Shown here piece after piece: positions 22,709 through 62,421 of a stretch of 64,000 bases of DNA (position 1 is its first letter; each line of letters starts with the position of its first letter). The DNA is from Promethearchaeia archaeon (lineage in GTDB: Archaea; Asgardarchaeota; Lokiarchaeia; Sigyniarchaeales; SOKP01), in assembly GCA_029856145.1 (NCBI GenBank), contig JAHQWK010000002.1, positions 32,001 to 96,000 on the forward strand, read 5' to 3'. Under the pieces are notes generated by a model that saw nothing but the letters and a program-made list of their open reading frames with translations, was not told the origin of the DNA and ran no database searches. A program made the translations under genes and the position numbers.

Positions 22709-22750
22709 AAATTTTTTTCTATTTTTTTATTTTTTTATTTTTTATTCTTT
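22709..22750 (+). terminator. archaeal oligo-T terminator
   Basis: Repeated T runs directly after the stop; similar tracts follow modules 2 and 3 (28866-28910, 35472-35500). Confidence 0.5.
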
Positions 22751-23233
22751 AGAGCTTTTAAATCTTAGAAAAAAGGATGCTTAAATTTTAAATGCCGGTA
22801 CTGGTCCAGAATTTACTGCTATTTATCTAAATGAAATAGGATATAAAATTGTGGCTATTGATATTATTTCAGAATTCTTAAATTATTATAATATAAAAGG
22901 GTTAAATCCTATTGCCTCAGTTATGTGTTTTCCTCCTTTTAAATCAAATATTTTTAATATTATTATCCCTATCTCTGCTTTACAATGGATTTATAGAGAT
23001 ATTAAATATGAAAAAATGCACTTTTTGTTAAAAAGTCTGTCTAAATCTATTATTCAGATTTAAAATCATTCTCTCAAGTGATAATTCAATTTTATCCCTA
23101 GAATAAGGAAATATTGGAAAAAATCGGTAAAATTTTTACAGAAAACACTGCTTTTTATGGAAATTTTATAATAGATAATCCAAATAGACCGAAAAAGTGA
23201 ATGATTTAACTTTTACTAAAAAAGAAGACATAA
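22749..23233 (+). pseudogene. 5'-truncated, decayed copy of the Bud23-like methyltransferase
   Basis: Reads LELLNLRKKDA*ILNAGTGPEF...ISALQW...(frameshift)...IQFYP*NKE...IIDNPNRPKK*; aligns to 17300-17782. Confidence 0.93.
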
Positions 23234-23379
23234 TTTGAGAGTTAGACTTGATATTTTATATAGAACTCTTTTCTATTTTGTATATTAGAACTTATTTATT
23301 TACATAATATTTTATTTAACTTCTCCCATGATATTGTTAAAAATTATATCTAAAAATTTCAAATTAGAATGATGATTTT

Positions 23380-27753: not shown

Positions 27754-28865
27754 TGCCTATAGGATTAGTCATAATGAGGTGGGATATAAAAGTAAGTACA
27801 GAAATCCTTGCTAAATATCCTGAGGAACTTATTATTAGTGATGAGACTTTAATGCAAATCTATGCAGCACATGAATATACAGGAGAACCAGGCATGATAA
27901 GTTTATTAGTTGGACCTTTAAATATCGCTTCATATTACACAGGACGAGAAAAACCACTTTATATCATCTTACTGTTGAATTTAGATGAAGATGCTGATAC
28001 CTATGAAGGAGGTTTATCAGACATTTCACGGGTAATATTCCAAAATTATGAAGATAATGCCTATCTGGAGATGATTCCGTTTCTATTCCAACGTTTATCT
28101 ATATATCCTCATTTGAATGAAGAACAAAGTTTAGCCGTCACCTTTTCAGATAATGTAAATCGATTGATAATAGAGAGATTAAGAGAAGAGGGGGTTATTA
28201 CTAAATCAGAATTAAAGATATGGTTAAAAGATAGATATAGAGAGGGCTTTTTTGATGTTGATGCAATTTTAATGGAATTAATTAAAAAAGAAATAGTAAA
28301 AGAAACATCAGTAAAAGGAATGCCTTCTGAATTAATCTTTCTTATTAACGATCTTTTCATGATAAGAAGACCTCCAATTAAACTACTCAAAAATCCTGTA
28401 GAACGTGGACTTCCGGAGAGATTTCTCGAGGAATACAATGTTGCAGTAAGAAAATTCTTCCAAAAGTATCGTCCCTCAGAAGAAGATAATATTAAAATTT
28501 TAGATGAAGTTATTGGAGACCCCCAAGTCTATGAAATTCTGAAACTTCTAAGAATTTCAATTGTTACTAAAAATGTATTGGAGAAACTCCGTAAAAAAGG
28601 TGTCGATGATATAGATGGAGGCTTAAAGAAATTATGGGAAAATCAAATGATTCATGTATTTCAAGATAGTAAAGGAAATGAGTACTATGCTTTAATTTCT
28701 GACTTTCATAATTCAATAGTTTATCCTAAATACATGTTAAATACGATTATTTATCAATATAGAGTAAAATCAAAATCAAATAGTGTTTTGATCGAATATC
28801 TAAATGTTCTTGATGATAATTATCGATCTATAAAATTTAAAGCTGAAGTACAGGAAGAAGAATAA
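27753..28865 (+). CDS. cytoplasmic longin/uDENN-like + winged-helix protein, module 2 partner
   Basis: TAATG overlap; MPIGLVIMRW...KYP; paralog of the other two partners. Confidence 0.75.
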   Translation: MPIGLVIMRWDIKVSTEILAKYPEELIISDETLMQIYAAHEYTGEPGMISLLVGPLNIASYYTGREKPLYIILLLNLDEDADTYEGGLSDISRVIFQNYEDNAYLEMIPFLFQRLSIYPHLNEEQSLAVTFSDNVNRLIIERLREEGVITKSELKIWLKDRYREGFFDVDAILMELIKKEIVKETSVKGMPSELIFLINDLFMIRRPPIKLLKNPVERGLPERFLEEYNVAVRKFFQKYRPSEEDNIKILDEVIGDPQVYEILKLLRISIVTKNVLEKLRKKGVDDIDGGLKKLWENQMIHVFQDSKGNEYYALISDFHNSIVYPKYMLNTIIYQYRVKSKSNSVLIEYLNVLDDNYRSIKFKAEVQEEE

Positions 28866-28932
28866 AATTTAATACTTTTTTTTATATTTTTATCAATATT
28901 TTTTTTAAATAAAATAATTATAATAATTTCTA

Positions 28933-29970
28933 TTAATTAGTTAAATAACCTTTCAATTTATTTGCTTTTTCATGAAATTCCTTATAGAGATTATCGTCCC
29001 CTAATTCAAGGCATAAATCAGAAATTTTTTCAAAATACTCAGCGGTTTGGGCAATATCTCCATTTTCTAAACTAAGTTTTGCTTGATGGATTAGTTGATC
29101 TCTTTCGAATAAAGGTTTTAATAACGGTGAGGCATCAGTACTAACCTCTAGGATATCTGCTATAATTTGAATCATCTTTTCTCGATTATCCGGTTCAATT
29201 GCAACCATTGAATATGTTTTCAAACCAAGTATTTCTTCAATTTTTTGCACATTTAAGGCATCAGTTAAATCTTGTTTGTTCCCTATTATAGCAGTGTGGG
29301 CATGGGGGGCATGTTCCTTTACTAATTCAATAAAAAATTTACTTTTTTCTACATTTTCCAATGTAGAGTCTGTAATGATAAGAACAGCATCACTACCAAG
29401 AATAAACTCATTCCATAGGTAGCTAAATTGTTCTTGTCCAGCAAAATCCCATAAGTGAAAATATAATTTTCCAATTTTAATAGTTGAAATTTTTCCTGTA
29501 ATAGTAGGAATATGTACGGATGGGATCTCAGTAGCACATATTAGTTTCGTAGTAGTTGTTTTTCCAACACCTGAAAATCCTACTAAAGAAATCTTTGTCT
29601 TAAGATTTCTATGAATGGAATCTATTATTGGATCAAGTAATTCCATAAGAGATGTATCTAAATTATCTAAAGCATCACCAAATGTATCTAAAAATTCGCT
29701 TTGAAGATTTGCTAGTTCGCGTTTAGTTCGTGAGAGTTCGTCATTAATATCAGTTATAAACATAAACGTTAATTTTAAATCCTCTTCTAATGCAAAAACT
29801 AATTTGTATTTAATATAATCATAGCTGTTAAGTTCTATCCCTGTACCTTTTGTAGATACTTCGATTATCTCCTGATAAAGTTTATTAAAATCCTCCTCAT
29901 ATATTCCTTTGCCGAAGTTCTTATTGTATATTATTTTTTCATCCTTTAAAATATAAACTTGCCTTAACAT
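28933..29970 (-). CDS. longin-domain small GTPase (Arf/Rab-like) with C-terminal helical extension
   Basis: N-terminal ~120 aa longin-like domain; GFSGVGKTT, PT, WDFAGQ, NKQD. Confidence 0.88.
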   Translation of the reverse strand: MLRQVYILKDEKIIYNKNFGKGIYEEDFNKLYQEIIEVSTKGTGIELNSYDYIKYKLVFALEEDLKLTFMFITDINDELSRTKRELANLQSEFLDTFGDALDNLDTSLMELLDPIIDSIHRNLKTKISLVGFSGVGKTTTTKLICATEIPSVHIPTITGKISTIKIGKLYFHLWDFAGQEQFSYLWNEFILGSDAVLIITDSTLENVEKSKFFIELVKEHAPHAHTAIIGNKQDLTDALNVQKIEEILGLKTYSMVAIEPDNREKMIQIIADILEVSTDASPLLKPLFERDQLIHQAKLSLENGDIAQTAEYFEKISDLCLELGDDNLYKEFHEKANKLKGYLTN

Positions 29971-30501
29971 ATTTCCCCGTCTAATTCTTATAAAATTTTA
30001 AAAATAAAGAAGTCAATTTATCTTTTTTTAAAGTTACAAATATAACTTTACTATTTTTCTTTGATTCTACAATCTAAATTTAAATATTTAAATTTTGAGA
30101 AATTGAAAAATATGAAAGGCATAAGATAGAATTATTGAAATTATATTTAAACTCAAAAAAAAGAAATAGATGAATGGTTGCATTATTTACATGCATTTTA
30201 CAACTGGGTATATCATTTCATGGCAAAATTTTGATTTTATTTCCATTTATTCTAATAAAATCTTATTTGAAAAAAGAATCGTTTAAGTGTTAACAAACTT
30301 TTCGAAAATAAATCATTTATTTCAAATTATGTACACTCTAACTTATGTCTTAAAAATTTGTTGTAAAACTATCAAGAATATATCGTGGTGTTACTCATAA
30401 ATAAAAAGTTAAATAGGAAAATTTGTATAATAAATGATAAAAAACTCTTTTTTTAAAAAATTTAAAATAAAAACAATCTAATAAATAAATTGATAATAAA
30501 C

Positions 30502-48122: not shown

Positions 48123-48335
48123 TTAATCTTTATTTAACTCTACAAGCTCATCATTTCTTAAATAAACTTTAATTGTAGAAAGTTTCTTTCGATTCTTAAA
48201 ACATGCAGGACAAAATATGGGATCACCTGTTTAATCAGAATTAATTCTAATTTTATCTGTTGGAGAAATCCATTTCTCAAGTAGAATATAATCACATCTA
48301 TCACAAACAATAACATCAAAGCTAAAATTTCTCTT
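48123..48335 (-). pseudogene. zinc-ribbon gene remnant
   Basis: Own translation ...VIVCDRCDYILLEKW...NSD*TGDPIFCPACFKNRKK...; internal TAA at 48231-48233; no start codon. Confidence 0.5.
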
Positions 48336-48642
48336 TTACAAGATAGGAACCTATGATAACTATAGAATTTAATCGTAGAGATTCATTGTTAGAAGTTAGC
48401 CATCCTTTACATTTCTTAATGATTTTATGGGGAAGCAATGAGCTATCATGTTCAGCGATAATACTAAAGATATAACATACTGGAACACGAAATTTCATAT
48501 CACTTCCATAACCAAGTAATTTCTCCAATATTTTTGGAATTTTCTTAAACTGAGAAGTTTCCCAGAGGGAATCTAAATCTACTACAAGAGGATATATTTC
48601 CTCGAATTTTTTAAACTCTTGAGCTTGAAACATATTCTTCAA
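48322..48642 (-). CDS. HEAT/ARM-like protein, probably C-terminally truncated
   Basis: Helical repeats (FRVPVCYIFSIIAE; LTSNNESLRLNSIVIIG) ending abruptly in the remnant below. Confidence 0.5.
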   Translation of the reverse strand: MKNMFQAQEFKKFEEIYPLVVDLDSLWETSQFKKIPKILEKLLGYGSDMKFRVPVCYIFSIIAEHDSSLLPHKIIKKCKGWLTSNNESLRLNSIVIIGSYLVKEKF

Positions 48643-48648
48643 TTCCCA

Positions 48649-49539
48649 TTATTTATATTGTCTTTTAATTCTAAACTCCCTTTCAAGTTTCTGAAGTCGT
48701 TTTATATCATTATGGATCTGTATTATCGGGTCTTTGGAATAAGTACGCGGATTTTTTGAATCGAATCTCTTAATAAAATGTCTTAACTTTTTCTTCTCTC
48801 TTCTTAACGGTATACTCATCTTAGTTCTATTATAATAATGGCGATAAAGGGCTCCTGTTAGAAGAGTCGTAAAAATGATCAAAAGGAAATACGGGAAAAA
48901 CTGAAAGGGGTTATATTGGAGTATATCTAAGAAAGTAAATGAAGGCCAAAATACCTGAGATAATTTGATAACAAAAAAATCTGCTATTGCAATTAACACT
49001 AACATGGGTATATACTTCTTAGGCAAAAGTCTTATTGGAAAATGATATCTATCTGGAGCTAAAGACTCTTCTACTGTGGGCGTTTTGTAAGTACCTTCTC
49101 CTGCTTGAATGGGAGTTAAAGTCTCCTCCTTAACTGCTGAAACCTCTTCTACTTCTATTATATGTTCTGAATGGAGAATATCAATGAAATCTAAAAATGT
49201 TCTATGTTGGTCAATATCTGATTTAAAATGCCTAAATTTCTTTTTGAACTTACTCTCAAGGGAATCAATATCACTTATAATTTCGAACCGTTCATGAAAT
49301 TGATGTTTTAAATCTGTCTTTATGTCATAAATATTATCTGTAGAGTCTGGTGAATCTACTAATTTAGAGGTATCATCTATAAATTTGTCTATATTAAGCC
49401 AATATTTATAATATCCTCCATCTACCAGACATAATTGAAGGATTTCTTCAAATTCAATATCTAATAGTTCGGAAATCTTCTGAAGTCGTTCAAATAACGG
49501 ATCTGAAATAATAGTTTCTATTTTTGCCATTACCATCAA
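48649..49539 (-). CDS. hypothetical membrane protein (2 TM)
   Basis: Acidic N-terminal domain, two hydrophobic segments, basic tail. Confidence 0.7.
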   Translation of the reverse strand: MMVMAKIETIISDPLFERLQKISELLDIEFEEILQLCLVDGGYYKYWLNIDKFIDDTSKLVDSPDSTDNIYDIKTDLKHQFHERFEIISDIDSLESKFKKKFRHFKSDIDQHRTFLDFIDILHSEHIIEVEEVSAVKEETLTPIQAGEGTYKTPTVEESLAPDRYHFPIRLLPKKYIPMLVLIAIADFFVIKLSQVFWPSFTFLDILQYNPFQFFPYFLLIIFTTLLTGALYRHYYNRTKMSIPLRREKKKLRHFIKRFDSKNPRTYSKDPIIQIHNDIKRLQKLEREFRIKRQYK

Positions 49540-49588
49540 TTTTGTCTTCTAGTTATAGGATATATAATAAAAAATCAAGTAAAAATAA

Positions 49589-51022
49589 TTATGTGTTTTT
49601 CTCAATTTGATCATCTAACTTAACAACTTTAAATAATCTTACACAATGACTAAATGTGGTATGATTAACATTAATATTTAGTACGTCCTTCATTAACTGA
49701 CTAATGTCATTTTGGGATAAGTCTGGGTTTGTTAGCGTTATGCAGGTGGCAACAATTATAGGTTCTCGTGTCCGAAATCCAATCTCGTTCGCCATCTCAC
49801 ATATTTTCTCAATGCTATCGCCAATAGTTTTAGGCTTGGAGGCAATACGAAATAATTTATGGTTAAGGTTTAAAGATTTGATGTGATACCTTAGTATTCG
49901 AAAGATTTCCTTAGCATAATGGGAATCTAAATAGGGAAATTTACTGGCATATTGGGTAAAGGTTCCTTTATGACTTATTTTCTGGAATAAACAACTCAAA
50001 GAAGAACTCCCTGAAACATCTATTAGTCTCGAAATATCGACTAGTGAGGCTCTGGGGCAAGCGAAAGCAATAGATACTCCAACAATTCTTTTATGATCTC
50101 GTTTAATATTTCTTCGCTTCAATAATTTAATAAAGTAATTAATGTTCTTTCTAATGGTTTTTATATTCCTATGAATGAGAAATTCTGCTCTTGATAGTAG
50201 ATTATAGTTACTCTGTTTCTTAGTTATCCTTTCAATTATAATATTCAGCAATAGATGGGATCGCTCATTTAAATTTTTTGTCCATAGAGAAGATCTCTCA
50301 ATTAAAGGGGCAATAAGAGAAGTACTAGGGCAAGGCACTGGCTGAAATGTCATCAACGACACTAATTTTTTTCTTAATAAATATGCTGAATTAATGGGGG
50401 ATTGGAAATTGGGAATGTCTAATTTTGGGATAATATACTTATTTATTTTATTCGAAACTGAACCACTCGAAACGCAGATCCTTTCACAAATTTGGGCCAT
50501 ATTGATTGAAGTAATCCCTGAAACAATCAATGTTAAGACTAGAATAACGCCCGCACTAAGTTCTTCTGAGGTAAATTGGAGTAAGGGATAAAAATGGTTA
50601 TAGAGCAATTTAGCGTTATCAGTAAAATGGTGGTGCAAGTCAAAATAGCTTACAACATCCTCTATAATTGCAAAAACTAACCTAGAATTATCACGATTTT
50701 TAAAATCAAGATACAAAGGAATTAAATTTTTCATGTCTTTTACAAGTTGACTATAAGTTAAATCAAGATTCTGGGAGAATATATGCCTATTAACCACTAC
50801 AGCATTTACTTTTAAAAACATATAGAGAATAGGGGGAAACGCAAGATCTATATTGCGATATTTAGTATATCTCCTTATTTTCGAGTGTACTGTATTAAAT
50901 ACTGATATAAACTCTTCAAATAAATGACTGTATTGAATTTGGTCTATGTCGGTTAGAGTCTGGATAAATTGTTGCCTGAGTACATTATAATTATTCTTGT
51001 TAATTTGAATAGATTGAGTCAT
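49589..51022 (-). CDS. TFIIB/cyclin-fold repeat protein
   Basis: Repeated helical units such as SEELSAGVILVL...INMAQICERICVSSGSV and REPIIVATCI...SQNDISQLM; ATG at 51022 with GGTGA RBS. Confidence 0.55.
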   Translation of the reverse strand: MTQSIQINKNNYNVLRQQFIQTLTDIDQIQYSHLFEEFISVFNTVHSKIRRYTKYRNIDLAFPPILYMFLKVNAVVVNRHIFSQNLDLTYSQLVKDMKNLIPLYLDFKNRDNSRLVFAIIEDVVSYFDLHHHFTDNAKLLYNHFYPLLQFTSEELSAGVILVLTLIVSGITSINMAQICERICVSSGSVSNKINKYIIPKLDIPNFQSPINSAYLLRKKLVSLMTFQPVPCPSTSLIAPLIERSSLWTKNLNERSHLLLNIIIERITKKQSNYNLLSRAEFLIHRNIKTIRKNINYFIKLLKRRNIKRDHKRIVGVSIAFACPRASLVDISRLIDVSGSSSLSCLFQKISHKGTFTQYASKFPYLDSHYAKEIFRILRYHIKSLNLNHKLFRIASKPKTIGDSIEKICEMANEIGFRTREPIIVATCITLTNPDLSQNDISQLMKDVLNINVNHTTFSHCVRLFKVVKLDDQIEKNT

Positions 51023-51224
51023 GCAAGATGAATCACCTATTCCTTTATAAAGAAAAAATTGGAAAAAAAATGAAAGAATAATCTGGAAATTATTTTGGTA
51101 TCTGAAGAAACCCAAAATTTTACTATTCTGGATTAAAATTAGCTTAAATAAAGGCTTAAATATAATTGGAAATATATCTTCATAACAAGAGATAAATAAT
51201 CAATTCTAAATTAGAGATAAAAAT

Positions 51225-52052
51225 ATGGAGAGTAGTGCCATTACTACTAAATGTGTGAGATGTGAGTCAGAAGAAAACATAGAAAATTATCTTCATACCA
51301 CACCTGATTTAGCGAGTTTTAGACGTATCTCAAGACATGTTACCAGGTATACTACTTACAAAGGAACGGGAGGAACTGGATATGTACCGGTCTGTTCTCG
51401 GTGTATTAAAAAGTTTTCTAATTGGAAAATATATAATAATATTAATCTTGGTTTAACTGGAGTTATCTGGTTATTTTTTAGTCTTATGTTGGTCTTATTA
51501 ATGATAGCGGGCCCAACTTCATATATCCCAGGTTTAAAAGATATACCCTTTGAGATCATTATAACTGGATTTGGAGTCTCTCTGACTCTGGTTATAATTA
51601 GTGTAATAATTTCTTTTTATCTTAATATTGTCTCAAAATCTAATCCAAAGAATATTATTAATATCAGACGAAGGACGATTCGAGTTAAACCTATTGGAGG
51701 CTCTAAATGGATTCCTATACAAGAGTGGATTCCTGAACGCCCTCAGGATTTTCAGACGCAAGGTTCCTTAAATTTAACGAAAATGACAAGTCTAGAAGAC
51801 CATGTTATAGAATCTAAAGAAAGAGAATATGGAGAACATTGTGAAAACGCATTATATGATTACTTGGAGAGTAATCGAGGGACTGCGTATACCGTTAAAG
51901 CATTGGAAAAAAAATTGAAGGATTTTATTGTAGATCCAAAAGAAAGAGAATATGGTAAAGAAAATCTTGAAAACGTCTTAAATAAAATGAGAGGAGTAGG
52001 GAAAATACATTCTATTAAAAAAAATGAGGAAACACACTATTTCTTCCCATGA
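51225..52052 (+). CDS. zinc-finger membrane protein with C-terminal winged-helix-like domain
   Basis: CVRC...CSRC, two TM helices, C-terminal LYDYLESNRGTAYTVKAL...LNKMRGVGKIHS. Confidence 0.65.
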   Translation: MESSAITTKCVRCESEENIENYLHTTPDLASFRRISRHVTRYTTYKGTGGTGYVPVCSRCIKKFSNWKIYNNINLGLTGVIWLFFSLMLVLLMIAGPTSYIPGLKDIPFEIIITGFGVSLTLVIISVIISFYLNIVSKSNPKNIINIRRRTIRVKPIGGSKWIPIQEWIPERPQDFQTQGSLNLTKMTSLEDHVIESKEREYGEHCENALYDYLESNRGTAYTVKALEKKLKDFIVDPKEREYGKENLENVLNKMRGVGKIHSIKKNEETHYFFP

Positions 52053-52114
52053 ATTTCGAAATCAATCTCTTTTTTCAATTTTTTGTTTATATAGATCTAA
52101 TGATCTAGAAATTC

Positions 52115-52555
52115 GTGTCTATTCAAGGAAGAAATATCGATCATCCGGAGGCAGAGTATAAGAAATTTTTACCCTTAGTTCATACCAAAGAGGGTACCTA
52201 TATCTTTCATCCTGGATTCATATATCAATCTTTACTAAAAGAGACAAGCATATCTAAAAGCGATGCTCAAAAAATAACAGAGCAAGTGGTTCGATTCTTA
52301 ATATCGGCAAACTTGAAGCTGATAACTGCCCCTCTTATTCGAGAAGTAGTAAACGTTCATTTGCTTAAAAATGGATTCGAGACAGAACGATTACTGTATA
52401 CAAGGATCGGACTACCGTTCTATGATTTGAGAGAGATATTAAATAATACTAATGATAATGAGGATGTTATACCTGATCTTATGAATTGGATAATTACAGA
52501 ATACCATGCGGTAAATAAATTAATTCAAGAAAAACATCGAGAGGAGGAGAAATGA
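52115..52555 (+). CDS. stand-alone ATP-cone domain protein (NrdD N-terminus-like)
   Basis: IYQSLLKET...ITAPLIREVVNVHLLKNG...YTRIGLPFYD as in the archaeal class III RNR N-terminus. Confidence 0.8.
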   Translation: MSIQGRNIDHPEAEYKKFLPLVHTKEGTYIFHPGFIYQSLLKETSISKSDAQKITEQVVRFLISANLKLITAPLIREVVNVHLLKNGFETERLLYTRIGLPFYDLREILNNTNDNEDVIPDLMNWIITEYHAVNKLIQEKHREEEK

Positions 52556-52812
52556 ACATTCGAAAAATTGACACACACGTAGTAAAACATATTGCATCGA
52601 TGGCATTTTGGTATGTGATAGGATTTATCACATTGGTATTAATTACAGAGGGAATCTTACCTATGAATAGGGATTTCGGAAATTGTATGGGAATATTAGT
52701 AGATATTATGATTTTCTTAATCATCTTAGCCGATCTTATGGATATCAATAAACCTACAAAACGGGAAAAAACACGCAAATATTGGAGAAAGAAAGATTAC
52801 TGGGATCTTTAA
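52552..52812 (+). CDS. small 2-TM membrane protein
   Basis: ATGA overlap with the ATP-cone gene, GGAGG RBS, two hydrophobic helices. Confidence 0.7.
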   Translation: MNIRKIDTHVVKHIASMAFWYVIGFITLVLITEGILPMNRDFGNCMGILVDIMIFLIILADLMDINKPTKREKTRKYWRKKDYWDL

Positions 52813-52907
52813 ACCATCTAACTATACTAAAATTTGTCGGAGTCTTGAGGTTTAAATCTCTATAAATCAATTTTTTCTCATGTGAGCAAATATTCTTCTT
52901 ATTATGA

Positions 52908-53057
52908 TTGGGTATTACAATTCCAAAAGGAAAAAAAAGATACATACGGGATAGAAAGAACTCTTTAGGACTATATCACCCTCAATTTGAAGCATTTCTT
53001 AAAGAATGGAAGAAAAAGAATTTTCCAACTAAAGAAAAGAAGGAAAATGAAAAATAA
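52908..53057 (+). CDS. small basic hypothetical protein (49 aa)
   Basis: Own translation from TTG: MGITIPKGKKRYIRDRKNSLGLYHPQFEAFLKEWKKK...; overlaps the ATG of the next gene. Confidence 0.4.
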   Translation: MGITIPKGKKRYIRDRKNSLGLYHPQFEAFLKEWKKKNFPTKEKKENEK

Positions 53058-53337
53058 TTTGGATATTGAATCAGAGTTAAAAAAAATCGAAAGTAGATTT
53101 AATCACTATTTAGACAATTGTAGTAGATTCTATGATAATATCTTTATTATAAAGATGAACTCGTTTCTCTCTCAGTTTCCCTCAAATATCGTAGAGCAAT
53201 ATAGGTGGATGCGAAATGGTGGAACCCAGAAACCGGCTCTCTACTTTCAAAACCTCAATAGGATCATAAAATACCATGCAAAAAAGAATAAGTATACCAT
53301 AATAAAACCGTATAATTTAGATGTATTTCTTAATTAA
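53047..53337 (+). CDS. hypothetical protein
   Basis: Track ORF 52987..53337; ATG at 53047 with AGGA RBS is the more likely start. Confidence 0.6.
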   Translation: MKNNLDIESELKKIESRFNHYLDNCSRFYDNIFIIKMNSFLSQFPSNIVEQYRWMRNGGTQKPALYFQNLNRIIKYHAKKNKYTIIKPYNLDVFLN

Positions 53338-53378
53338 GGTTCTGCAACTAACTGTCGAAATTATTAAATTTTCTATAT

Positions 53379-53705
53379 ATGAATCCGAGAAAAGTTGTCA
53401 AACAACTGGTATTTTTTGCGAAAAGAGAGTTTAAGGAAAAGAAGCCCCTTGCTGTTCAAGTTTTACGAGTAAAAAGTGAGCAGATTTTTACGAAAGGTGG
53501 CCCATTGAAAGAATTAAGCGTAAGGCGTGTTGTAGGGGCGTTCTACTTAGTGGTGGTGGAATATAAAGAGAATATCAGAATTTACTATTATTCCAAAAAG
53601 GGGGAGCTCTTAAAGGCACAAAATCTTGAGAAAAATAAAAAATTGATGGAAAATATTAATAAATCAACCATACGAGAATTTCAAATTGGTAATCTTAAAC
53701 AGTAA
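53379..53705 (+). CDS. hypothetical basic protein
   Basis: 108 aa ORF in a co-oriented run. Confidence 0.65.
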   Translation: MNPRKVVKQLVFFAKREFKEKKPLAVQVLRVKSEQIFTKGGPLKELSVRRVVGAFYLVVVEYKENIRIYYYSKKGELLKAQNLEKNKKLMENINKSTIREFQIGNLKQ

Positions 53706-53837
53706 AGAAAGAAGGAGAGGAGTAATTAATATTACTCCTAGTTGTTATTCTCACGACAGACAAAAAAGGATAGTTCGAGGTAAGGCAGTGATTAAACAAT
53801 AATTCTAATGAAGGTATATAAAGTCCACCCAAAAAGA

Positions 53838-54281
53838 TCAAACATGACAACTACAAAGGGTTTGACCATGATCCCATAATTGATCTATTTTTTCTCCTAA
53901 TAATTCATTTCTTGTTTTAACTTCTTGCTCAAATTTATCAAATTTATGCATATCATGATTCCAGTTCTCTATCATTTGTATCGGATATAGCTTACAAAAT
54001 TTCTCTGCTATATGATTTAATTCGTAGAGTGCTACTTTTTCTTTGGTCTTTGTGGAAAATGTCGCTACGAAAAGCAGGTCACGTTTCTCAAGAATCTTGT
54101 ACTCGAATTTGTTGGTGGTAAAGCGTAGTAAGGTTTCTTGTAACCCTGTTTGAGCAAAACTATACAAAGCACTGGTGAGTCCTCCTAAACATTGGTCATC
54201 GGTGTTATGATGTATGATCTTACTGAAAAGAATCAATCCATATTCCTTAAGAATCCATAAATCTTGTAAATGTTTGATCAC
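53838..54281 (-). CDS. stand-alone longin-like domain protein
   Basis: LWILKEYGLILFSK...LGGLTSALYSFAQ...LLFVATF...F..LY...W....F..F pattern typical of Asgard longins. Confidence 0.75.
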   Translation of the reverse strand: MIKHLQDLWILKEYGLILFSKIIHHNTDDQCLGGLTSALYSFAQTGLQETLLRFTTNKFEYKILEKRDLLFVATFSTKTKEKVALYELNHIAEKFCKLYPIQMIENWNHDMHKFDKFEQEVKTRNELLGEKIDQLWDHGQTLCSCHV

Positions 54282-54702
54282 GTTTAACCCTCAGTAAAAA
54301 AATACCTGTTTTCTTACCATATACCCTTAACAATTCATATATTTTTACATATATTTAAATGTATACTCAAAAATTTCAGATTAAATTGAAGAAAAAAATA
54401 TTGGTTAATGAGAAGATTAACTTTTAAAAAAATAATTTTTTACCTTACTTTTAATTAACAATTAATTTTATCTATAATTTCAACTAACCCATAAAGCTGC
54501 CCAAGAATTTCTCCTTCAGTTCCAAAAATTGGCATTTTTGCTAATTCACTAGATATGATTGGATTAATTTGTGCTATATTTTCTAAGTCTGAAACTTAAT
54601 CCTATGATCTTAATATATTACTCTTTGTCTATTTAATAAAATATATATAATAAAAGATGCATATAAAAACGTAAAGTAATTACTATTAAAGAGGGACGAC
54701 TA

Positions 54703-55950
54703 TTGGTCGATTATCCAATTCTTTCAAATTGTGAGATAAAACTTACCAAACTTGTCTACGATATTCAACCATCATGGGCAGCAAATAGCCCCGCTCTTAG
54801 AGGTCTGTTTCCTGGCTATTCTGAGATTCCTTATTTATGGATGATTGTGTTTAAAATTGACGGTCTTCAAACAAGATTTGTAATAGAGAAGGTTGGAGGG
54901 AGATTTATAGGTAAATTCCAATTACAAGAAGGATGGGAGATACATGTCGATGTACGTCCGGGCTCTCCAGGTGGGATAACAAATGCAAATTTTGGGCATG
55001 GTAATATAGGAGGTGGAATGGAATATGGTGATGAGAGAAATATTGAATCAATCTTTGTAACAAATATCGGTTATCCTTTTAAATTTCGATTTGGTGACCT
55101 TGTTCCTATACCCTATTCTGTCCCAATATTTGACAAATCGGGTAATATACCCGCTATTATTGGATGTATTACGCTTTTATTCCGGCAATATGATACCCCA
55201 AATAGCGCTGTTTTGGAGGGTGCGCAAACTTGTGTTGAAGCAATTAGGGATGGGCTTAATAGTTTGATTGTTGACTTTGAACATGATTTTACAGATTATA
55301 TCAATCAATTGGACTTTACGGAACCCCCAGAAGTTATACTTCCTACTGAGGAAATAGATGATCTGAAAGCTGTTGTAAAAAGGAGAGTAACACAGGCGAT
55401 TGAAAGAAAAACAAGAGAAGAAACATCGGATTGGGATAAATTTCTTTATTGGATAGGAGTGAATATGCCGGATGAGCTAGTTGGGATTGGAGATTGGATA
55501 TGGCAAACTGATGATCTGATAGATGACTGTATCGCAGTTGAAGATACGCGCAAAGCTACAAGATATATTACATGGTTTAGTGCTGAACTAGTTAAAGGCA
55601 CACAGCAATTTCACTGGCCAGACAGCCCTGATGAAATTCCAATGGAAATAAAGAAGGAAATTTTCGGGGAGTTAATTGCTGAAAAGATTAAATGCTTTAT
55701 CGCCTCGGCAACATTTGGAAGTGAACTTTATCCGAGATTAAACTTATTGCGAAATTGGCGTGATAAAGTCTATAATAATAATAGAATTGGTCAAGAATTA
55801 ATCCATCTATATTATGAAAAGTCTCCTTTTTTTGCAAATATAGTGTCTCGGTCGAAGCATTTGAGAATATTAGTTAGAAGAATTCTCAAACCTATTATTA
55901 ATTCCATTCATCGTCATCATCCGAAATGGCAGCATTATAGAAGTAAGTAA
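54703..55950 (+). CDS. protein with C-terminal CFI-box-CTERM domain
   Basis: CFIASATFGSE...LRNWRD...G...I.LYYEKSP...LRILVRRILKPII. Confidence 0.8.
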   Translation: MVDYPILSNCEIKLTKLVYDIQPSWAANSPALRGLFPGYSEIPYLWMIVFKIDGLQTRFVIEKVGGRFIGKFQLQEGWEIHVDVRPGSPGGITNANFGHGNIGGGMEYGDERNIESIFVTNIGYPFKFRFGDLVPIPYSVPIFDKSGNIPAIIGCITLLFRQYDTPNSAVLEGAQTCVEAIRDGLNSLIVDFEHDFTDYINQLDFTEPPEVILPTEEIDDLKAVVKRRVTQAIERKTREETSDWDKFLYWIGVNMPDELVGIGDWIWQTDDLIDDCIAVEDTRKATRYITWFSAELVKGTQQFHWPDSPDEIPMEIKKEIFGELIAEKIKCFIASATFGSELYPRLNLLRNWRDKVYNNNRIGQELIHLYYEKSPFFANIVSRSKHLRILVRRILKPIINSIHRHHPKWQHYRSK

Positions 55951-55960
55951 TTTTTTTTAT

Positions 55961-56317
55961 TTATAATTTCAAATTCTTCTTTCTCAGCTCTTTTATTCGT
56001 TTATATTCTTCTTTATTTTTCTTCTTAATTTTCTTTCTATGTGTCCAATCGTGGCACGGTTTACATATTATTATCACATTTCTATGATTAGACCATCCCA
56101 CTCCGCCATACCAATTAGTATAGCTCGTATGATGATAATTAGCACTAGCCAAAGATTTAATTTCCTTACATTTATCACATAGAAACTTATTATTTGGTAT
56201 ATCTAATCCTTTCTTTTTCCATTTCTTACGCCTTCTCTCTAACGCCTTTATTTTGGTTTGTCTCCACGCTTCAGTATGTAAAAACCTTCTATACGAGTTT
56301 TTATAATTTTTGCCCAT
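55961..56317 (-). CDS. HNH endonuclease
   Basis: CDKC...YHHTSY...N...CKPCHDWTH. Confidence 0.85.
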   Translation of the reverse strand: MGKNYKNSYRRFLHTEAWRQTKIKALERRRKKWKKKGLDIPNNKFLCDKCKEIKSLASANYHHTSYTNWYGGVGWSNHRNVIIICKPCHDWTHRKKIKKKNKEEYKRIKELRKKNLKL

Positions 56318-56370
56318 TATTTCTCACTTCTATTTAGTTATTTATTAATAAACTCTAAATCTTTTTAATC

Positions 56371-56868
56371 CTATCCAATTTTCTGGCAGAATATCTCTCT
56401 TAATGAGAAATGAACATTTTCTTCGTGATATAGTTCACACTCTATCGTAAATAAAAAATATAACCATTCTGTCAAAGCTACAATAACTTTTCTTAGGTTT
56501 GCGATATAGGATTTAAACATACTATCATAATATTTTTTACTTAAGGTATCACCATCCCATAAACTAATGAGGGGAATTCTCCTTATCTGAGCCGATTTCA
56601 ATCTAAGAAAGATGCGTTGTGATAGATCGTGAGCCTTAAATTTCCATCTTTCAGATTTCCGTTCTATATACCAGAGATCAAATCTTTCTTGAAGAAAAAA
56701 GAGTATAAATTGCAATCTCTCAAATTCATCTACTATTTTTCCATTTCTTCCTGAGGGAGTGAAGGGAATTTCGGGGTATTCATACATATCCAAAATATTA
56801 ATGATTTCTTGAGTGATGTCTTGAACTGATTTTCTCGAAGAAAAGTAAGAGCAAACCATTATTTTCAC
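56371..56868 (-). CDS. hypothetical protein
   Basis: 165 aa ORF, co-oriented with the HNH gene. Confidence 0.6.
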   Translation of the reverse strand: MKIMVCSYFSSRKSVQDITQEIINILDMYEYPEIPFTPSGRNGKIVDEFERLQFILFFLQERFDLWYIERKSERWKFKAHDLSQRIFLRLKSAQIRRIPLISLWDGDTLSKKYYDSMFKSYIANLRKVIVALTEWLYFLFTIECELYHEENVHFSLREIFCQKIG

Positions 56869-57006
56869 CTAACTATTGTTTTTACATGATTCGCAATTAA
56901 CTTCTTCGAATTCTTCCAAATCACTTCGATACACTAAGATTGAACCTCTTCTACCACAAACTTTACAGTGAGTTTGTTTTCTAGTATTATTATCAATATA
57001 CATCAT
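56869..57006 (-). CDS. small zinc-ribbon protein (45 aa)
   Basis: Own translation MMYIDNNTRKQTHCKVCGRRG...VNCESCKNNS; stop abuts the next gene. Confidence 0.6.
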   Translation of the reverse strand: MMYIDNNTRKQTHCKVCGRRGSILVYRSDLEEFEEVNCESCKNNS

Positions 57007-57268
57007 ACTACACATTATTATTAATAAAAATATATAAAGAAAAAATGGCTATATTTTTGTCTTACATGATATACTCTCAAGGCATAATATAAATTAAAAC
57101 AGAGTATGGAATTTCATTAAAATTTCTTCAAATTGTAAAATGTCTTAGAGTTTGAAAAAATTCAAGCTTTCGCCGAACAGTTTGATAGAAATCAAACTAT
57201 AGAGCAAGATTTATATATATGTCTATCTAATTTATAAAATAACAAGAATCCGAGAGATTATTAAAGTT

Positions 57269-57646
57269 ATGAGCAAAAAAATGAGAATACCGACCATATG
57301 TACCAAATGCAAGTGGTTTAATGTGATAGGGTGTATGTACGATGAGGAGTTAGGGGATGGTTTTAAGCCTAATATTCAGTGTTTCGAACCTGTTAATAAT
57401 CCTTCGTATCCCCCTACAAGAGAAATTAATGATAAATTCTTTGAACTCTATTACAAAAAATTATATACATTAGAGCACGCGTTTATAACACAGAAAGGAG
57501 CATATAATGATGGTTCTGTCTTTATATCTGTACTTGCACGTAGTATCGAACTACTTGAAGAATCTAAGAAAGAGTTTATATCATTGCAAGAAGCATTTCG
57601 TAAATATCCTAAGACTTTTGAAGATGGTTTTAATTATTTCAATTAA
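57269..57646 (+). CDS. hypothetical protein with N-terminal Cys cluster
   Basis: CTKCKWFNVIGC...QCF. Confidence 0.6.
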   Translation: MSKKMRIPTICTKCKWFNVIGCMYDEELGDGFKPNIQCFEPVNNPSYPPTREINDKFFELYYKKLYTLEHAFITQKGAYNDGSVFISVLARSIELLEESKKEFISLQEAFRKYPKTFEDGFNYFN

Positions 57647-57771
57647 TTCATAGCGACATAAAAAGCTATCATAAGAAAATATCAATAATCTTCCAGCCCC
57701 TTGTAAATTATAATACTGAACCATCATTATCTTCATAATTTTCCATATATTCTTACATTAATCACAGGGCA

Positions 57772-58782
57772 ATGGAAGATAAAGAGGTATTAATTGCATA
57801 TAATCAAGAATTGGGGAGAATCTTTAAGATAGGTTATGGACTGCCAAAAAATCCCAAGAATTATACCTGGCTTTGCAAAAATTGTAAGAAACCTGTCTTT
57901 TATAATGAACATTTAAATTGTTTTAAGCATCGTGGATTGAAACCTGAAGGATTCGAACCTGAAACAATTGAACATAAGACAATGAAAGATTATTGGTATA
58001 ACATCTTTCCGAAATTTAATCCTATCTACAAACGTGAAAAAGAATATTGGTTAGAGGATCAAGTCGCGGATGTCTATTTTGAAACCAGAGAAGAAAAAAA
58101 AGTAGCAATTGAATGTCAAAATTCACCGATCACTTCTAAAAAGCTTATAGAACGAACGAAAAAATATGCAAAAAAGGATATTTACGTGCTCTGGATATTT
58201 AATGGTTCAGGTACGTGTGTATCTGAGCATAAAGCACCGCTTAATATGGATAAAGTTAGAGTGTTGGGAGTAGAAAAGAGAGTTCAGAAATTATATGGTG
58301 GACGAGTGTATTATATGAATGTAAAAGGAGAACTTACCTTCGAAGAACCTTATGCACTTCACTACTCTCCGTATTTTGAAAATCAAGTATCAGAAACCAG
58401 TATTTATGGTCATGATAAATATTATAAAGAATTTCAAAGTACCACTCATGGTTATATTTCAACCTATAAAATCGTATATAATGACTATAATGGGTATAAA
58501 CTTGCACGATTTATGGATAAGAATGTGAGTATATCCTGTACTGAACAACTTCTTATTTGTATAAATGAATATTGTAATAGAAAAATGAGAGAAGATAATC
58601 TTGAAGAAGGTGAAGAGGTCAAAATACCGGTGGAATATCTGATTGATCTTGTTAAGGAAGAATTCGGATATTACTTGCCCTATCTCATTCTAAAAAGGTC
58701 GAAACGGATAAAAAAAGTGAGATCTGAAAAAGTCTTGGATGATAAGTATCAAGTAAAAGATATAATAACAGTTAAAATCTAA
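57772..58782 (+). CDS. CoiA-like PD-(D/E)xK nuclease
   Basis: CKNC...FKH zinc site, ETIEH, ADVY...VAIECQNS...RT..Y...VLWIF. Confidence 0.8.
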   Translation: MEDKEVLIAYNQELGRIFKIGYGLPKNPKNYTWLCKNCKKPVFYNEHLNCFKHRGLKPEGFEPETIEHKTMKDYWYNIFPKFNPIYKREKEYWLEDQVADVYFETREEKKVAIECQNSPITSKKLIERTKKYAKKDIYVLWIFNGSGTCVSEHKAPLNMDKVRVLGVEKRVQKLYGGRVYYMNVKGELTFEEPYALHYSPYFENQVSETSIYGHDKYYKEFQSTTHGYISTYKIVYNDYNGYKLARFMDKNVSISCTEQLLICINEYCNRKMREDNLEEGEEVKIPVEYLIDLVKEEFGYYLPYLILKRSKRIKKVRSEKVLDDKYQVKDIITVKI

Positions 58783-58905
58783 AACATTATAAAAAGGATT
58801 TTCTAAAATTGTAAGAAGCGTTTAATAAATATCCTAAGAAAGTGGAAACTGAAATGAGATATTTTAACTAATTCCTTACTATCTTGAAAAGGAAAAATAG
58901 GGATT

Positions 58906-59070
58906 TTAGTATAGATGATTTGATTTTAGATCCTTGCATTTTTGAATGAATTCTGAGCATACTTTACATCGAGAAACATGACAATGCTCGTTCTTTGGCA
59001 AGACGCAGAGATGAATAAATGGACATGAAAAAAGATCATTTTCAGGATAATTTCTAATTTCACTTGTCAT
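58906..59070 (-). CDS. small Cys-rich protein (54 aa)
   Basis: Own translation MTSEIRNYPENDLFSCPFIHLCVLPKNEHCHVSRCKVCSEFIQKCKDLKSNHLY; six Cys. Confidence 0.5.
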   Translation of the reverse strand: MTSEIRNYPENDLFSCPFIHLCVLPKNEHCHVSRCKVCSEFIQKCKDLKSNHLY

Positions 59071-59283
59071 AATTATTTTACATTTTACCTTGGCCTTTTT
59101 TAAATAAAAAAATCAGAATGTAGGATTTTAAAACTCTGGAGGGTGTAAAATTTTTAATTCCTTTTTTAAGGGGTTTTTCTTTAAATGTAAAGATTAGAGT
59201 TAAATCTATTTGAATTCAGTAGAAAAGAACAAGAATAAATCAGAAATTAAAAGAAGAGACTTACTTGAAAAGTCCTTTTTCTC

Positions 59284-60996
59284 TCAATATCTATCATTTT
59301 TCTCTAAAAATTCCTGAATTTTATTAATTTCCTGCTGTGAAAACACAGTATTTATTATATAGTTATTAATAATAAATTGGTTCAGAGGTTTCGTATCAGA
59401 GATATTATATTTCTTAGCAACATGGCGAACTTGAAATCTGAGTAAAAAGGATAAAAAATGCAAATAGGTGTTATTTATATGTTTTTTGTTATCATGGAGT
59501 AATTTGTTAATTTGAGCATTGGCCATTTCTTCATGGGTGATTTCGTTTCTAAAACTATTGAATTTTAATAACTTATCTTCGAGATTTTTGGGAAATTTAA
59601 AATTCTTTATTCTTGGTGGAGTCTTGGTTATTCCGTTTTTTCCAAAATTATCTTCATATAGGACATCAAATTGTGTGATAAACCGTAGTACAAATCTAAA
59701 CTTGTCTGAAACTCCATAAAGTTTTACCCAATCTGGAATTTTGAGTTTTTTCATGTTTGAGTTAATAACTTGTCTGATTAATTCTGGAATGGGCTGAGAT
59801 GTTTCCTGTTCCTCGATATTTTTCTTTAGTAATTGGAGTAAATCAGAAAGTTCATTCAATATTGTTAATCGTATTTTGGAAGGTCTTGATTTATCCTTAC
59901 ATACCTTATCTAATTCATTCATTCGTTCAAGAATCCAATTTTTATATGCATTCCAATTCGTTTTTAGGGAAGGAATTGGAGGTATGTCTGATTTATGTTC
60001 TGGCTTCAATAAAGATGGCTGTGAAGTAGAGGAATCTTGTAGAGGAAGATCTAATCCTAACTTTCTAACAATATTTTCAAAATCTACCTGATCTGATTCT
60101 GTAAGTTGATAACCTGATATATTCATCTGATACCATTCTTCCACAAAATCATTTGGAATTCCCTCTTTCCAATGATGATTTTTCAAATATCCATATAGTT
60201 TCTGAGGGTTATATAATTCATCAAGCTCTAAGTGGGCAGGATTGACTTTTTTACTTCTATATTCGTGTAATAATTGGATAAACTCTTTTCCAAGAGCTCT
60301 ATTTGTGGAAATAAGTACTTCATATTCATCTGAAAAATCGTTTAACTTCTTTGGAGTCTTAAATTTCATGTCTTTGGTATCTGGAATATTTATATCATAA
60401 TACTGGCTGGTAAATTCTAATATTGAACTCCAATGTTTCTTATCATATTCACTCAAAATATCAGGTAAAGTTTCTAAAGTACCAGTTTGATTTAATTCTT
60501 TGAATATTCGAGTAGCAGCAATTTTAATTTTTTGAATATTTTCCTGCAAAATATCTTCATCCTGAGAATCTGATATTAGAGAGGTCTCAAACTCTAACTC
60601 TTTAGGAGTAAGGTTATAATTTAAAAATTGGTTATTTTTTTTATTGAAGAACACAAATCTACTTCCATTCGCTAAATTACTGATATTTTCATTGGAATTT
60701 ATGATGCACCTAATACCGTCTAACGCCATCAACTCTTTTACTTTCCCTCTATCCACATTAAAAATAAAGTAAAGAGTGGGATTTTGAGAATAAGAATTTG
60801 AGCTTTCAAATTCTAAGATCTCTTTAAGATTATGTAGTGCGGTGGATTCAAGATCAACTATGTTATATCCTGCGGTAAATATCTCTAACCCATGGAGATG
60901 CTTTAAATCCACATAGGGAAATACCACTAGATTTTTCTGTTGAAAAAATAAGATATTGAGAAATTCCGGTTGGATAAAATCTGATCCTGTATCCAT
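59284..60996 (-). CDS. multidomain protein with C-terminal HEPN-like motif
   Basis: LLKFNSFRNEITHE (Rx4H at 59533-59550) after a Pro/Ser linker; GGTGA RBS. Confidence 0.6.
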   Translation of the reverse strand: MDTGSDFIQPEFLNILFFQQKNLVVFPYVDLKHLHGLEIFTAGYNIVDLESTALHNLKEILEFESSNSYSQNPTLYFIFNVDRGKVKELMALDGIRCIINSNENISNLANGSRFVFFNKKNNQFLNYNLTPKELEFETSLISDSQDEDILQENIQKIKIAATRIFKELNQTGTLETLPDILSEYDKKHWSSILEFTSQYYDINIPDTKDMKFKTPKKLNDFSDEYEVLISTNRALGKEFIQLLHEYRSKKVNPAHLELDELYNPQKLYGYLKNHHWKEGIPNDFVEEWYQMNISGYQLTESDQVDFENIVRKLGLDLPLQDSSTSQPSLLKPEHKSDIPPIPSLKTNWNAYKNWILERMNELDKVCKDKSRPSKIRLTILNELSDLLQLLKKNIEEQETSQPIPELIRQVINSNMKKLKIPDWVKLYGVSDKFRFVLRFITQFDVLYEDNFGKNGITKTPPRIKNFKFPKNLEDKLLKFNSFRNEITHEEMANAQINKLLHDNKKHINNTYLHFLSFLLRFQVRHVAKKYNISDTKPLNQFIINNYIINTVFSQQEINKIQEFLEKNDRY

Positions 60997-61035
60997 ATTA
61001 TCACCTTAAATTAAAATTAAATAAAAAAATGGAAT

Positions 61036-61701
61036 TTAATCTTCCTTAAAATAATGAATAATAACTTGAAGTATCAAATCTGTAAACGATTGTACCACAT
61101 TTTCTCCTTGTAATGCTTCAGCGGGATATACTACCAATGTACCGTCGGGATATGATTCTTGGAGTGGAAGGCCCAAATGTAATTTAAAATCTTTTACTGG
61201 AATTGCATCCTTTAAATCTCGTTTATTCAGCTGTATTAAATAGGGAATTTGTTTCGGTTTCGCAAAACTTACCAGCTCTCTGAAACTTCTTTTGTTCTGT
61301 TCAATTTTTTCTGGATTAGAATCACCAATAAACATAATGCCATCTGCCCCATCTAATACATATTCACGAGTTGAGAGAAATCTTTCTTGTCCAGTACATG
61401 TCACCACATGGCATATAATATTAAATGTAACATCGTGTAGTGTAAAATTGAATAGTAAATACAATGAATCCTCCCAGAGTGTCCTTCCTTCCGTAGTTTC
61501 AATAGAATATCCCTTAGTGAGCTTCAACAGATCAAATTTTTCTCTGAGCCTGAAAAAATTGGTGGTTTTCCCACTTTCACCTGGACCCCAATATACGATC
61601 TTAAATTGAATCATGTTCTGGGAATCATTAAAATCAAACTCTTCACTCACTTCCACTTCAATCTGATCTAATTTATCTATATCTCTCTGTTCTAATTCCA
61701 T
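61036..61701 (-). CDS. mglA: MglA-family small GTPase
   Basis: KIVYWGPGESGKTTN, GRTL, TCTGQ (for TVPGQ), GADGIMFIGDS, QLNKRDL. Confidence 0.88.
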   Translation of the reverse strand: MELEQRDIDKLDQIEVEVSEEFDFNDSQNMIQFKIVYWGPGESGKTTNFFRLREKFDLLKLTKGYSIETTEGRTLWEDSLYLLFNFTLHDVTFNIICHVVTCTGQERFLSTREYVLDGADGIMFIGDSNPEKIEQNKRSFRELVSFAKPKQIPYLIQLNKRDLKDAIPVKDFKLHLGLPLQESYPDGTLVVYPAEALQGENVVQSFTDLILQVIIHYFKED

Positions 61702-61724
61702 TTAATCACCTGAGATTTTGAATC

Positions 61725-62276
61725 TTAAGAAATGGTTCCGATCTTATCTTTAAATATCTGCTTCTTGAGCTCTTTGATATGTTCTTTAATTTCTCTTTCT
61801 GGCATCTTCAGAACATTTTTCATGTGCTCGTTTTTCTCGATCTCTTCTTTAATTTTCTGAGCAAACTTACTCATCTGAAGGATCATTACGCCTAAATTTA
61901 CCTCGTTATCGGTTAATAATACAATAAGAATGTCTCGTTTTCCTTTCTTCTGAAGCTCAATGTTTCCTATGGATTTGACAAATAATCGCATATCACTGTA
62001 GATAATTGTGGCACGTTCTAACGATTCAGTTTCAAAAAAATCTTGCCCTTGCCGTGCGACTCCGTATAAAGCTGCTCCAATCGAGCTTAAATCCCAATAA
62101 TTCAGCTTTCGGTCAAATCGGGAATCGATGGCAATAATCTTTGCATCTTGATCTATTGTTATTAGACCGTAGATATATCCTTTTCGGGTTAATATCCCGT
62201 AGTTATATCTAATATCGTCTAACACTTCGGTTATTTTATTTTGGTATAAAACCTTTGGTATATGAGTTAACGTCAT
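61725..62276 (-). CDS. mglB: MglB-like roadblock/LC7 domain protein
   Basis: LITIDQDAKIIA...SIGAALYG...ILIVLL...VNLGVM roadblock pattern, directly upstream of mglA. Confidence 0.75.
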   Translation of the reverse strand: MTLTHIPKVLYQNKITEVLDDIRYNYGILTRKGYIYGLITIDQDAKIIAIDSRFDRKLNYWDLSSIGAALYGVARQGQDFFETESLERATIIYSDMRLFVKSIGNIELQKKGKRDILIVLLTDNEVNLGVMILQMSKFAQKIKEEIEKNEHMKNVLKMPEREIKEHIKELKKQIFKDKIGTIS

Positions 62277-62421
62277 TTTTTTCCTTATATTGTAATTTTG
62301 TTAGAAGAAGATAATATGAAGAGTATTTAAAGAAAAAATTAGGAGAGTCCGAAAAAATAGATATAAATAAGAATCCAAATAATAATATCATTATATGTCA
62401 AAAATCCATTAGTTTAAGAAA

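Follow-up and report, generated by a model that had tools for sequence, protein, structure and literature searches.

An Asgard roadblock-MglA-DENN-like gene trio with an exchangeable, predicted RNase tail

We analyzed a 64,000-nt stretch of contig JAHQWK010000002.1 from a Promethearchaeia archaeon (hereafter, the window) and describe a set of three adjacent genes (hereafter, the trio), in which a divergent roadblock gene and an MglA GTPase gene precede a third gene that joins a predicted DENN-like lobe to one of several probable RNase domains that have replaced one another at the same position. The trio consists of an MglB-like roadblock/LC7 gene (61725-62276; 183 aa, a single domain with a C-terminal helical extension), an MglA-family small GTPase gene (61036-61701; 221 aa), and gene 3 (59284-60996; 570 aa), which encodes the DENN-like lobe and a HEPN tail. 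All trio features given below lie, like these genes, on the minus strand; residue numbers refer to gene 3, except for Arg73 and Gln105, which refer to the window GTPase. As read in the original prediction from this sequence, the genes are co-oriented with gaps of 23 and 39 bp, and a GGTGA site is present in both gaps. About 47 nt upstream of the roadblock start lies a presumed promoter motif consisting of a T-run and TTTA(A/T)ATA (62324-62337, minus strand), which also precedes the roadblock gene at virtually every locus of the genus that we inspected.

The best PDB matches of the window GTPase in a phmmer search were the MglA proteins of Thermus thermophilus and Myxococcus xanthus (E 1e-21 to 7e-20). 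In an alignment to Thermus MglA (3t12), Arg73 of the GRTL motif (61483-61485) corresponded to MglA Arg53 and Gln105 of the TCTGQ motif (61387-61389) to Gln82, while the P-loop GPGESGKTT (61564-61587) and NKRD were intact. The catalytic residues, including Arg73 and Gln105, were invariant in 28 orthologues, and judged by its sequence the GTPase is an MglA, as had been read from the GRTL arginine and TCTGQ. Five further MglA-like paralogues are found in the genome besides those of this trio and of a second trio copy described below. The roadblock protein, which is 76-96% identical across the genus, had no direct Pfam match and only a weak match in the PDB (E 0.3). Because a roadblock profile reached an orthologue (89 bits) that itself passes PF03259 (Robl_LC7; E 1.8e-6), we assign the first gene by profile as a divergent roadblock, in agreement with the original prediction. 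MglB is the GTPase-activating protein (GAP) for MglA (PMC3199381), and an MglB is defined by a roadblock domain and by acting as a GAP on its own MglA in a 2:1 complex; by analogy, the window roadblock is a candidate GAP.

Neither Pfam nor NCBIfam offered a named family for any part of gene 3, and an ARIH1 match (E 0.001-0.005) was rejected as a composition match within a helical stretch. Residues 1-210 folded alone with AlphaFold2 gave a mean confidence (predicted local distance difference test, pLDDT) of 90.5. In the VIA structural search, the top match of this model was folliculin (Z 10.0, root-mean-square deviation (rmsd) 3.2-3.3, 162-163 residues aligned over the range 1-202), and other DENN matches included DENND10 (Z 9.7), DENND1A (8.2), and C9orf72-SMCR8 (8.1); DENN-family proteins were the top three matches, and the DENN matches spanned residues 1-202 at an rmsd of 3.2-4.2 Å. 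Eukaryotes use the DENN fold to regulate small GTPases. The predicted architecture is a five-stranded P-loop-like α/β domain without Walker motifs followed by a helical d-DENN part, and the DENN core is known to resemble a P-loop domain without Walker motifs (PMC3438538, PMC3521125). No DENN match was obtained at the sequence level. Residues 1-202 (60391-60996) are thus predicted to fold like the DENN/d-DENN lobe of folliculin; the N-terminal adaptor region postulated earlier is present, but its DENN-like identity had been missed. Since the modeled chain begins at the DENN lobe and has no longin (u-DENN) domain, we refer to a DENN-like lobe and not to a full tripartite module. The C-terminal lobe of folliculin by itself has in vitro exchange activity on Rab35 (PMC3438538). 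Longin and roadblock domains are related GTPase platforms (PMC3521125), and because of this relationship the upstream roadblock may stand in trans for the missing longin domain. A complex prediction of MglA (with GTP and Mg) and the N-terminal 318 aa scored 0.00 and is not counted as evidence. Inspection by eye only suggests that in a distant third gene (L157:1712-3757; 681 aa) the DENN-like lobe is followed by a longin-like segment.

Behind the lobe, residues 222-313 (60058-60333) form a helical domain with the motif P-x-x-x-Y-x-x-L-R-x-x-x-W, which is conserved as far as distant homologues and for which we found no PDB sequence match and no known relative. In the model, a disordered linker leads from there to an amphipathic helix (residues 341-367; 59896-59976) that a motif scan recovered in 129 of 147 full-length homologues and that constitutes the terminus of forms without a tail. 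In several proteins with a HEPN-B tail, a type introduced below (P0026, P0044, P0089, P0123), the helix is doubled and flanks the RNase, as if the latter had been inserted between repeats.

The C-terminal tail (residues 405-566; 59299-59784), a cassette of the type we call HEPN-A, was identified by structural and profile matches. In the full-length AlphaFold2 model of gene 3 (pLDDT 85), residues 412-526 matched the HepT toxins 5yep and 7ae2 (Z 9.6) as well as 1wwp (Z 9.4) in the VIA search; the matches to four HEPN structures, at Z 9.2-9.6, are modest for a helical bundle and are backed by a sequence match to HepS. HepS was the best PDB match of the tail profile (E 0.0024), with its R100 and H105 and the preceding K-I-K and P motifs aligned, and the HepS H105A mutant scored lower against this profile than HepS did. 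The RNEITH motif of the tail (residues 483-488; 59533-59550) agrees with the Rx4-6H pattern, including a polar residue after the arginine, by which HEPN RNases are recognized (PMC3710099). R483 and H488 were two of only four invariant columns among 25 aligned tails and were kept in 32 of 33 fused HEPN-A homologues, and since the family is otherwise only about 35-42% identical (35% on average), this conservation exceeds what chance would leave. The tail is thus predicted to be a HEPN fold with a conserved catalytic motif, and the HEPN call of the original prediction withstood the fold comparison. HepS is an abortive-infection tRNase of the Gifsy-1 prophage that rests as an inactive tetramer until a phage protein binds (PMC13043305), and we use the match as a model for the activity of the tail and not as proof of it. 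The ESM Atlas returned only low HEPN-type leads for gene 3. The fusion is not an assembly artefact, because the boundary of scaffold and tail is spanned by near-identical contigs from three studies.

Gene 3 homologues, hereafter the scaffold, end in different ways. Among 148 homologues, 53 carry a NYN/PIN tail, 34 HEPN-A, 8 HEPN-B, 1 a HepT-like HEPN (PF01934 above cut-off), and about 52 none. The NYN/PIN tails match PF11977, the Regnase family, and keep its acidic residues. HEPN-B is a second probable HEPN with weak Abi_2 and PADLOC matches, the latter to the C-terminus of the model PDLC02907; Rx4H is present in 6 of 11 HEPN-B tails, and the other 5, like two other tails, are degenerate. We treat HEPN-A and HEPN-B as separate recruits because their profiles do not align outside the motif. 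Exchange has been frequent: we counted 15 tail-state changes on the scaffold tree and at least 11 tail-type changes within the genus on an independent roadblock and GTPase tree, on which a single origin of the HEPN-A carriers was rejected (approximately unbiased test, p-AU 9e-14). In four closely related genomes, each with NYN, the tail had a synonymous divergence (dS) of 0.56-1.41 compared with 0.05-0.58 in the genes on both sides, and the ratio of nonsynonymous to synonymous divergence (dN/dS) in the tail was 0.12-0.20 (simple counting method, ~125 codons). The dS peak together with the low dN/dS indicates that even tails of the same class have separate histories of greater age and evolve under purifying selection, a pattern expected for exchanged cassettes. 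The swapping of C-terminal effectors foreseen in the original prediction is thus borne out, and the repeated swap and loss of a predicted RNase domain points to a candidate switch-linked toxin or defence payload.

The scaffold was found in 94 of 134 genomes of one Lokiarchaeia-type family, spread over 12 genera, and its homologues bear names that place them in Promethearchaeota/Lokiarchaeia, an Asgard lineage. Of 88 loci, 80 have the three genes side by side in this order, which upholds the suggestion that the third gene would be linked to mglAB elsewhere; the remaining eight comprise four at the same locus but split by tiny open reading frames (ORFs) or rearranged, two cut by a contig end, and two unlinked, both from one 72%-complete genome. 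FEN1 and RPA usually precede the trio, which is bordered on both sides by variable genes. Synteny does not support the accessory region in which the locus had been placed, and we reject an accessory island, since the site is fixed at this address in most of the family while only its flanks change. The roadblock profile matched 114 of 400 genomes of the phylum, mostly from one family, and a roadblock orthologue, MglA, and a nuclease-free DENN-like gene lie side by side in other families of this order as well as in two distant ones, one of which has the set directly after FEN1. Based on this wider spread, without a rooted test, the nuclease-free switch is probably the older state. No viral contig encoded a relative, PADLOC gave no match for the three window proteins, a BFVD search returned weak AAA+ rows only, and no conserved partner gene, and so no adjacent MNT antitoxin, stood beside the trio in the 88 loci.

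Related genes are present elsewhere in the assembly. A further trio copy (C23:3307-6217, L031) is 84% identical in DNA up to codon 316; where the window trio has HEPN, it carries a NYN tail followed by a gene for an MFS transporter, and homology restarts just downstream of the replaced part. Contig C23 begins inside the duplicated stretch and assembly contamination is 5.4%, and the copy may be a true duplicate or derive from a co-binned relative; duplicate trios also occur in several genomes of a sister genus. In a separate operon (C20:143379-147078, L176), consecutive genes encode a double-length roadblock, a putative DENN protein of 298 aa, and MglA (C20:144566-147078) and face a further MglA; this operon is a candidate for the widespread Asgard roadblock-GTPase-DENN operon discussed below. 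Since it exists apart from the trio and shares no detectable profile match with it, the trio is, at the profile level, a second, paralogous module in this genome. We also observed a stand-alone protein of 286 aa with a Zn-ribbon and a HEPN-A-like domain (C23:11685-12545, L031; also C6:6506-7429), which aligns with the tails (hhalign 97%), lacks the catalytic histidine, and is conserved in most genomes of the genus, including some without the trio. It is possibly a source or an inhibitor of the cassette.

Liu et al. (bioRxiv 10.1101/2020.10.19.343400, Fig. 5b) predicted an Asgard operon of a LAMTOR-like roadblock, a small GTPase, and DENN. Judged by that paper's text, the two sets have in common a roadblock, a non-Rag small GTPase, and a longin-less DENN-like protein, as well as a proposed module of a guanine nucleotide exchange factor and a GAP; the trio differs in being ordered roadblock-MglA-DENN, with an extra helical domain and an optional RNase, and HEPN is not mentioned in the text of the paper, though the two sets may overlap. 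Because its N-terminal region is DENN-like, we regard the core of the trio as the kind of operon that those authors predicted, so that this kind is already in print, whereas the exchangeable RNase was not found in the literature searched; our searches for MglA together with HEPN and roadblock, and for Asgard DENN operons after 2020, found nothing. What we add is the DENN fold of the isolated lobe, the paralogy with the C20 operon, the link to HepS, the third HEPN type, the tree tests, the dS peak, and the paralogue without histidine. With the MglA/MglB polarity switch of M. xanthus and T. thermophilus (PMC3199381) the trio shares the intrinsic arginine, the catalytic glutamine, and the mglB-mglA order, but it has a third gene combining a DENN-like lobe and an RNase, its roadblock is too divergent for a direct Pfam match, and no motility context was seen around it. 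The lobe resembles folliculin, DENND10, DENND1, and C9orf72-SMCR8 in its predicted DENN and d-DENN parts (Z 8-10); unlike these eukaryotic modules, gene 3 has no longin in cis, is 5-12% identical, and is fused to a nuclease, and its putative partner is of the MglA type instead of Rab, Rag, or Arf. The tail shares the HEPN fold and an R-N-x3-H motif with HepT, the toxin of HEPN-MNT pairs, and with HepS, but is fused to a scaffold, has no adjoining MNT antitoxin gene, and is chromosomal and fixed in place.

From these components, their linkage, predicted folds, catalytic conservation, and repeated exchange, we propose that the trio is a switch-gated scaffold with an exchangeable RNase acting in conflict, an explanation that we favor while rating it somewhat short of an even chance. 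Binding among the three proteins, RNase activity, gating, its trigger, and a defence role are the parts that we infer, and gating by the GTPase combined with a defence role is itself tentative, a plausible but not a probable outcome. The three genes would form one co-expressed switch in which MglA cycles between GTP and GDP and a roadblock dimer speeds its hydrolysis, as MglB does, while also taking the place of the longin domain that is part of the same chain in eukaryotic DENN proteins. Gene 3 would bind the GTPase through its DENN-like lobe, as an exchange factor or an effector. The nuclease-free switch would be older, and the DENN protein of one Lokiarchaeia-type family would have acquired, at its end, a slot for RNase cassettes (three HEPN types and NYN/PIN) gained, lost, and exchanged by recombination. 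The window HEPN would most likely be an active, dimer-dependent RNase, held off until the switch alters the oligomeric state of the scaffold, and would then cut tRNA or mRNA and halt growth during conflict with a virus, incoming DNA, or non-kin contact. This reading is suggested by unrelated RNase folds filling one slot with their catalytic residues kept, by the linkage of the trio under one conserved, presumed promoter, and by the nature of HepS, the closest solved sequence relative, as an allosterically activated anti-phage tRNase. Because no conserved antitoxin gene follows the trio, something within the operon should hold the RNase off.

Several observations weigh against this explanation. 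No nuclease tail is present in 57 of 88 genome loci (some cut by contig ends), which makes the tail-less form the commonest and implies that cutting RNA is not what the switch is mainly for. A disordered linker precedes the HEPN domain, for which the model gives no defined contact with the DENN-like lobe (predicted template modeling score, pTM, 0.45). Residues 1-120 also fit AAA+/STAND folds, the trio occupies a fixed chromosomal site beside DNA-processing genes and not a defence island, and the DENN gene of several distant genomes no longer lies next to the roadblock-MglA pair.

The prevalence of tail-less loci and the flexible linker would also suit a passenger RNase: the switch would have a job of its own, such as polarity, DNA uptake, or repair, and toxin domains would hitch on to its 3' end ungated, acting as polymorphic toxins or addiction modules that are co-expressed through the last gene. 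Both flanks of the trio are hot spots of variable genes and tail alleles are exchanged independently of the scaffold, as such hitchhiking would have it. Yet the slot is filled in frame almost exclusively by RNases, of at least four different kinds and with their active sites intact, and no conserved antitoxin gene lies downstream that could restrain them. We consider passenger status unlikely, if still a serious contender.

We think it quite improbable that the RNase instead performs Regnase-like regulatory RNA turnover, timing or ending a T-run promoter programme that includes a TFB-like factor, RPA, an XPD-like helicase, and a CoiA-like nuclease, with no role in defence. The promoter motif is concentrated near the trio, with 5 of 15 ORF-proximal matches genome-wide lying within 17 kb around it; the window holds four matches against 0.33 expected, all at 51-62 kb (51044-62337), preceding TFB-like, ATP-cone-like, and roadblock genes, and the motif recurs just outside the window before XPD-like, TPR, and RPA-side genes. 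The stable vertical presence in the family and the Regnase match of the NYN tails would also fit such turnover, but a housekeeping regulator would not be expected to replace its nuclease fold repeatedly or to keep old divergent alleles, and the nearest solved relative of HEPN-A is an abortive-infection tRNase.

STAND defence proteins typically have exchangeable nuclease tails, and the N-terminal domain could be a dead AAA+/STAND sensor, with gene 3 an Avs-like sensor-effector defence protein lying behind mglBA by chance. Foldseek ranked AAA+ proteins only, and Avs5 reached Z 8.7, the highest value of the AAA+/STAND fits. However, the AAA+ matches end at residue 120 with a whole-domain rmsd of 15-19 Å in Foldseek, whereas the DENN matches extend over the entire lobe at far lower values; gene 3 has no Walker A/B, short tail-less orthologues stand in the same operon in distant Asgard families, and folliculin too draws NTPase matches in such searches (PMC3438538), all of which leaves a dead sensor very unlikely. 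That the HEPN-fold tail only binds RNA or dimerizes, as the conserved stand-alone paralogue without histidine and the degenerate HEPN-B and other tails might suggest, is barely credible given that nearly every fused HEPN-A tail retains the arginine, the next polar residue, and the histidine, with identity elsewhere falling to ~30%.

Returning to the switch-gated scaffold, a bolder and doubtful version is that in Asgard archaea a polymorphic RNase is turned on and off directly by the eukaryote-like DENN regulator and the small GTPase cognate to it, giving a GTPase-gated immune or kin-recognition toxin with its payload under diversifying exchange; if so, DENN-GTPase signaling would have been coupled to the destruction of RNA earlier than, or separately from, membrane traffic. 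Asgard small GTPases are rarely found in operons and are therefore hard to pair with their regulators (PMC10933270). The trio groups a roadblock, an MglA, and a DENN-like lobe in one place. The fused RNase would supply a built-in read-out, as toxicity or RNA cleavage would report the state of the switch in a laboratory strain. The trio could also be used to ask whether the eukaryotic DENN module descends from a split arrangement of a roadblock and a longin-less DENN lobe, and it would enlarge the small set of known Asgard conflict systems by an RNase that is controlled by a small GTPase and swapped as a cassette.

Directly downstream of gene 3 lies a 54-aa ORF with six cysteines (58906-59070, minus strand), which has an 82% nucleotide match to the C23 flank and marks where homology to the C23 copy restarts beyond the swapped cassette; it may lie outside the trio system. 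A CoiA-like nuclease gene (PF06054; 57772-58782) faces the trio, and its relatives recur beside the trio in several genomes. Farther away in the window, a 2.75-kb stretch with the TFB-like gene (48328-51077) is duplicated on contig C14 at 91% identity, and positions 17931-35471 hold three repeats of a gene for a 1.2-1.5k-aa single-pass surface protein together with a 370-aa longin-like gene, with longin/GTPase fusions nearby.

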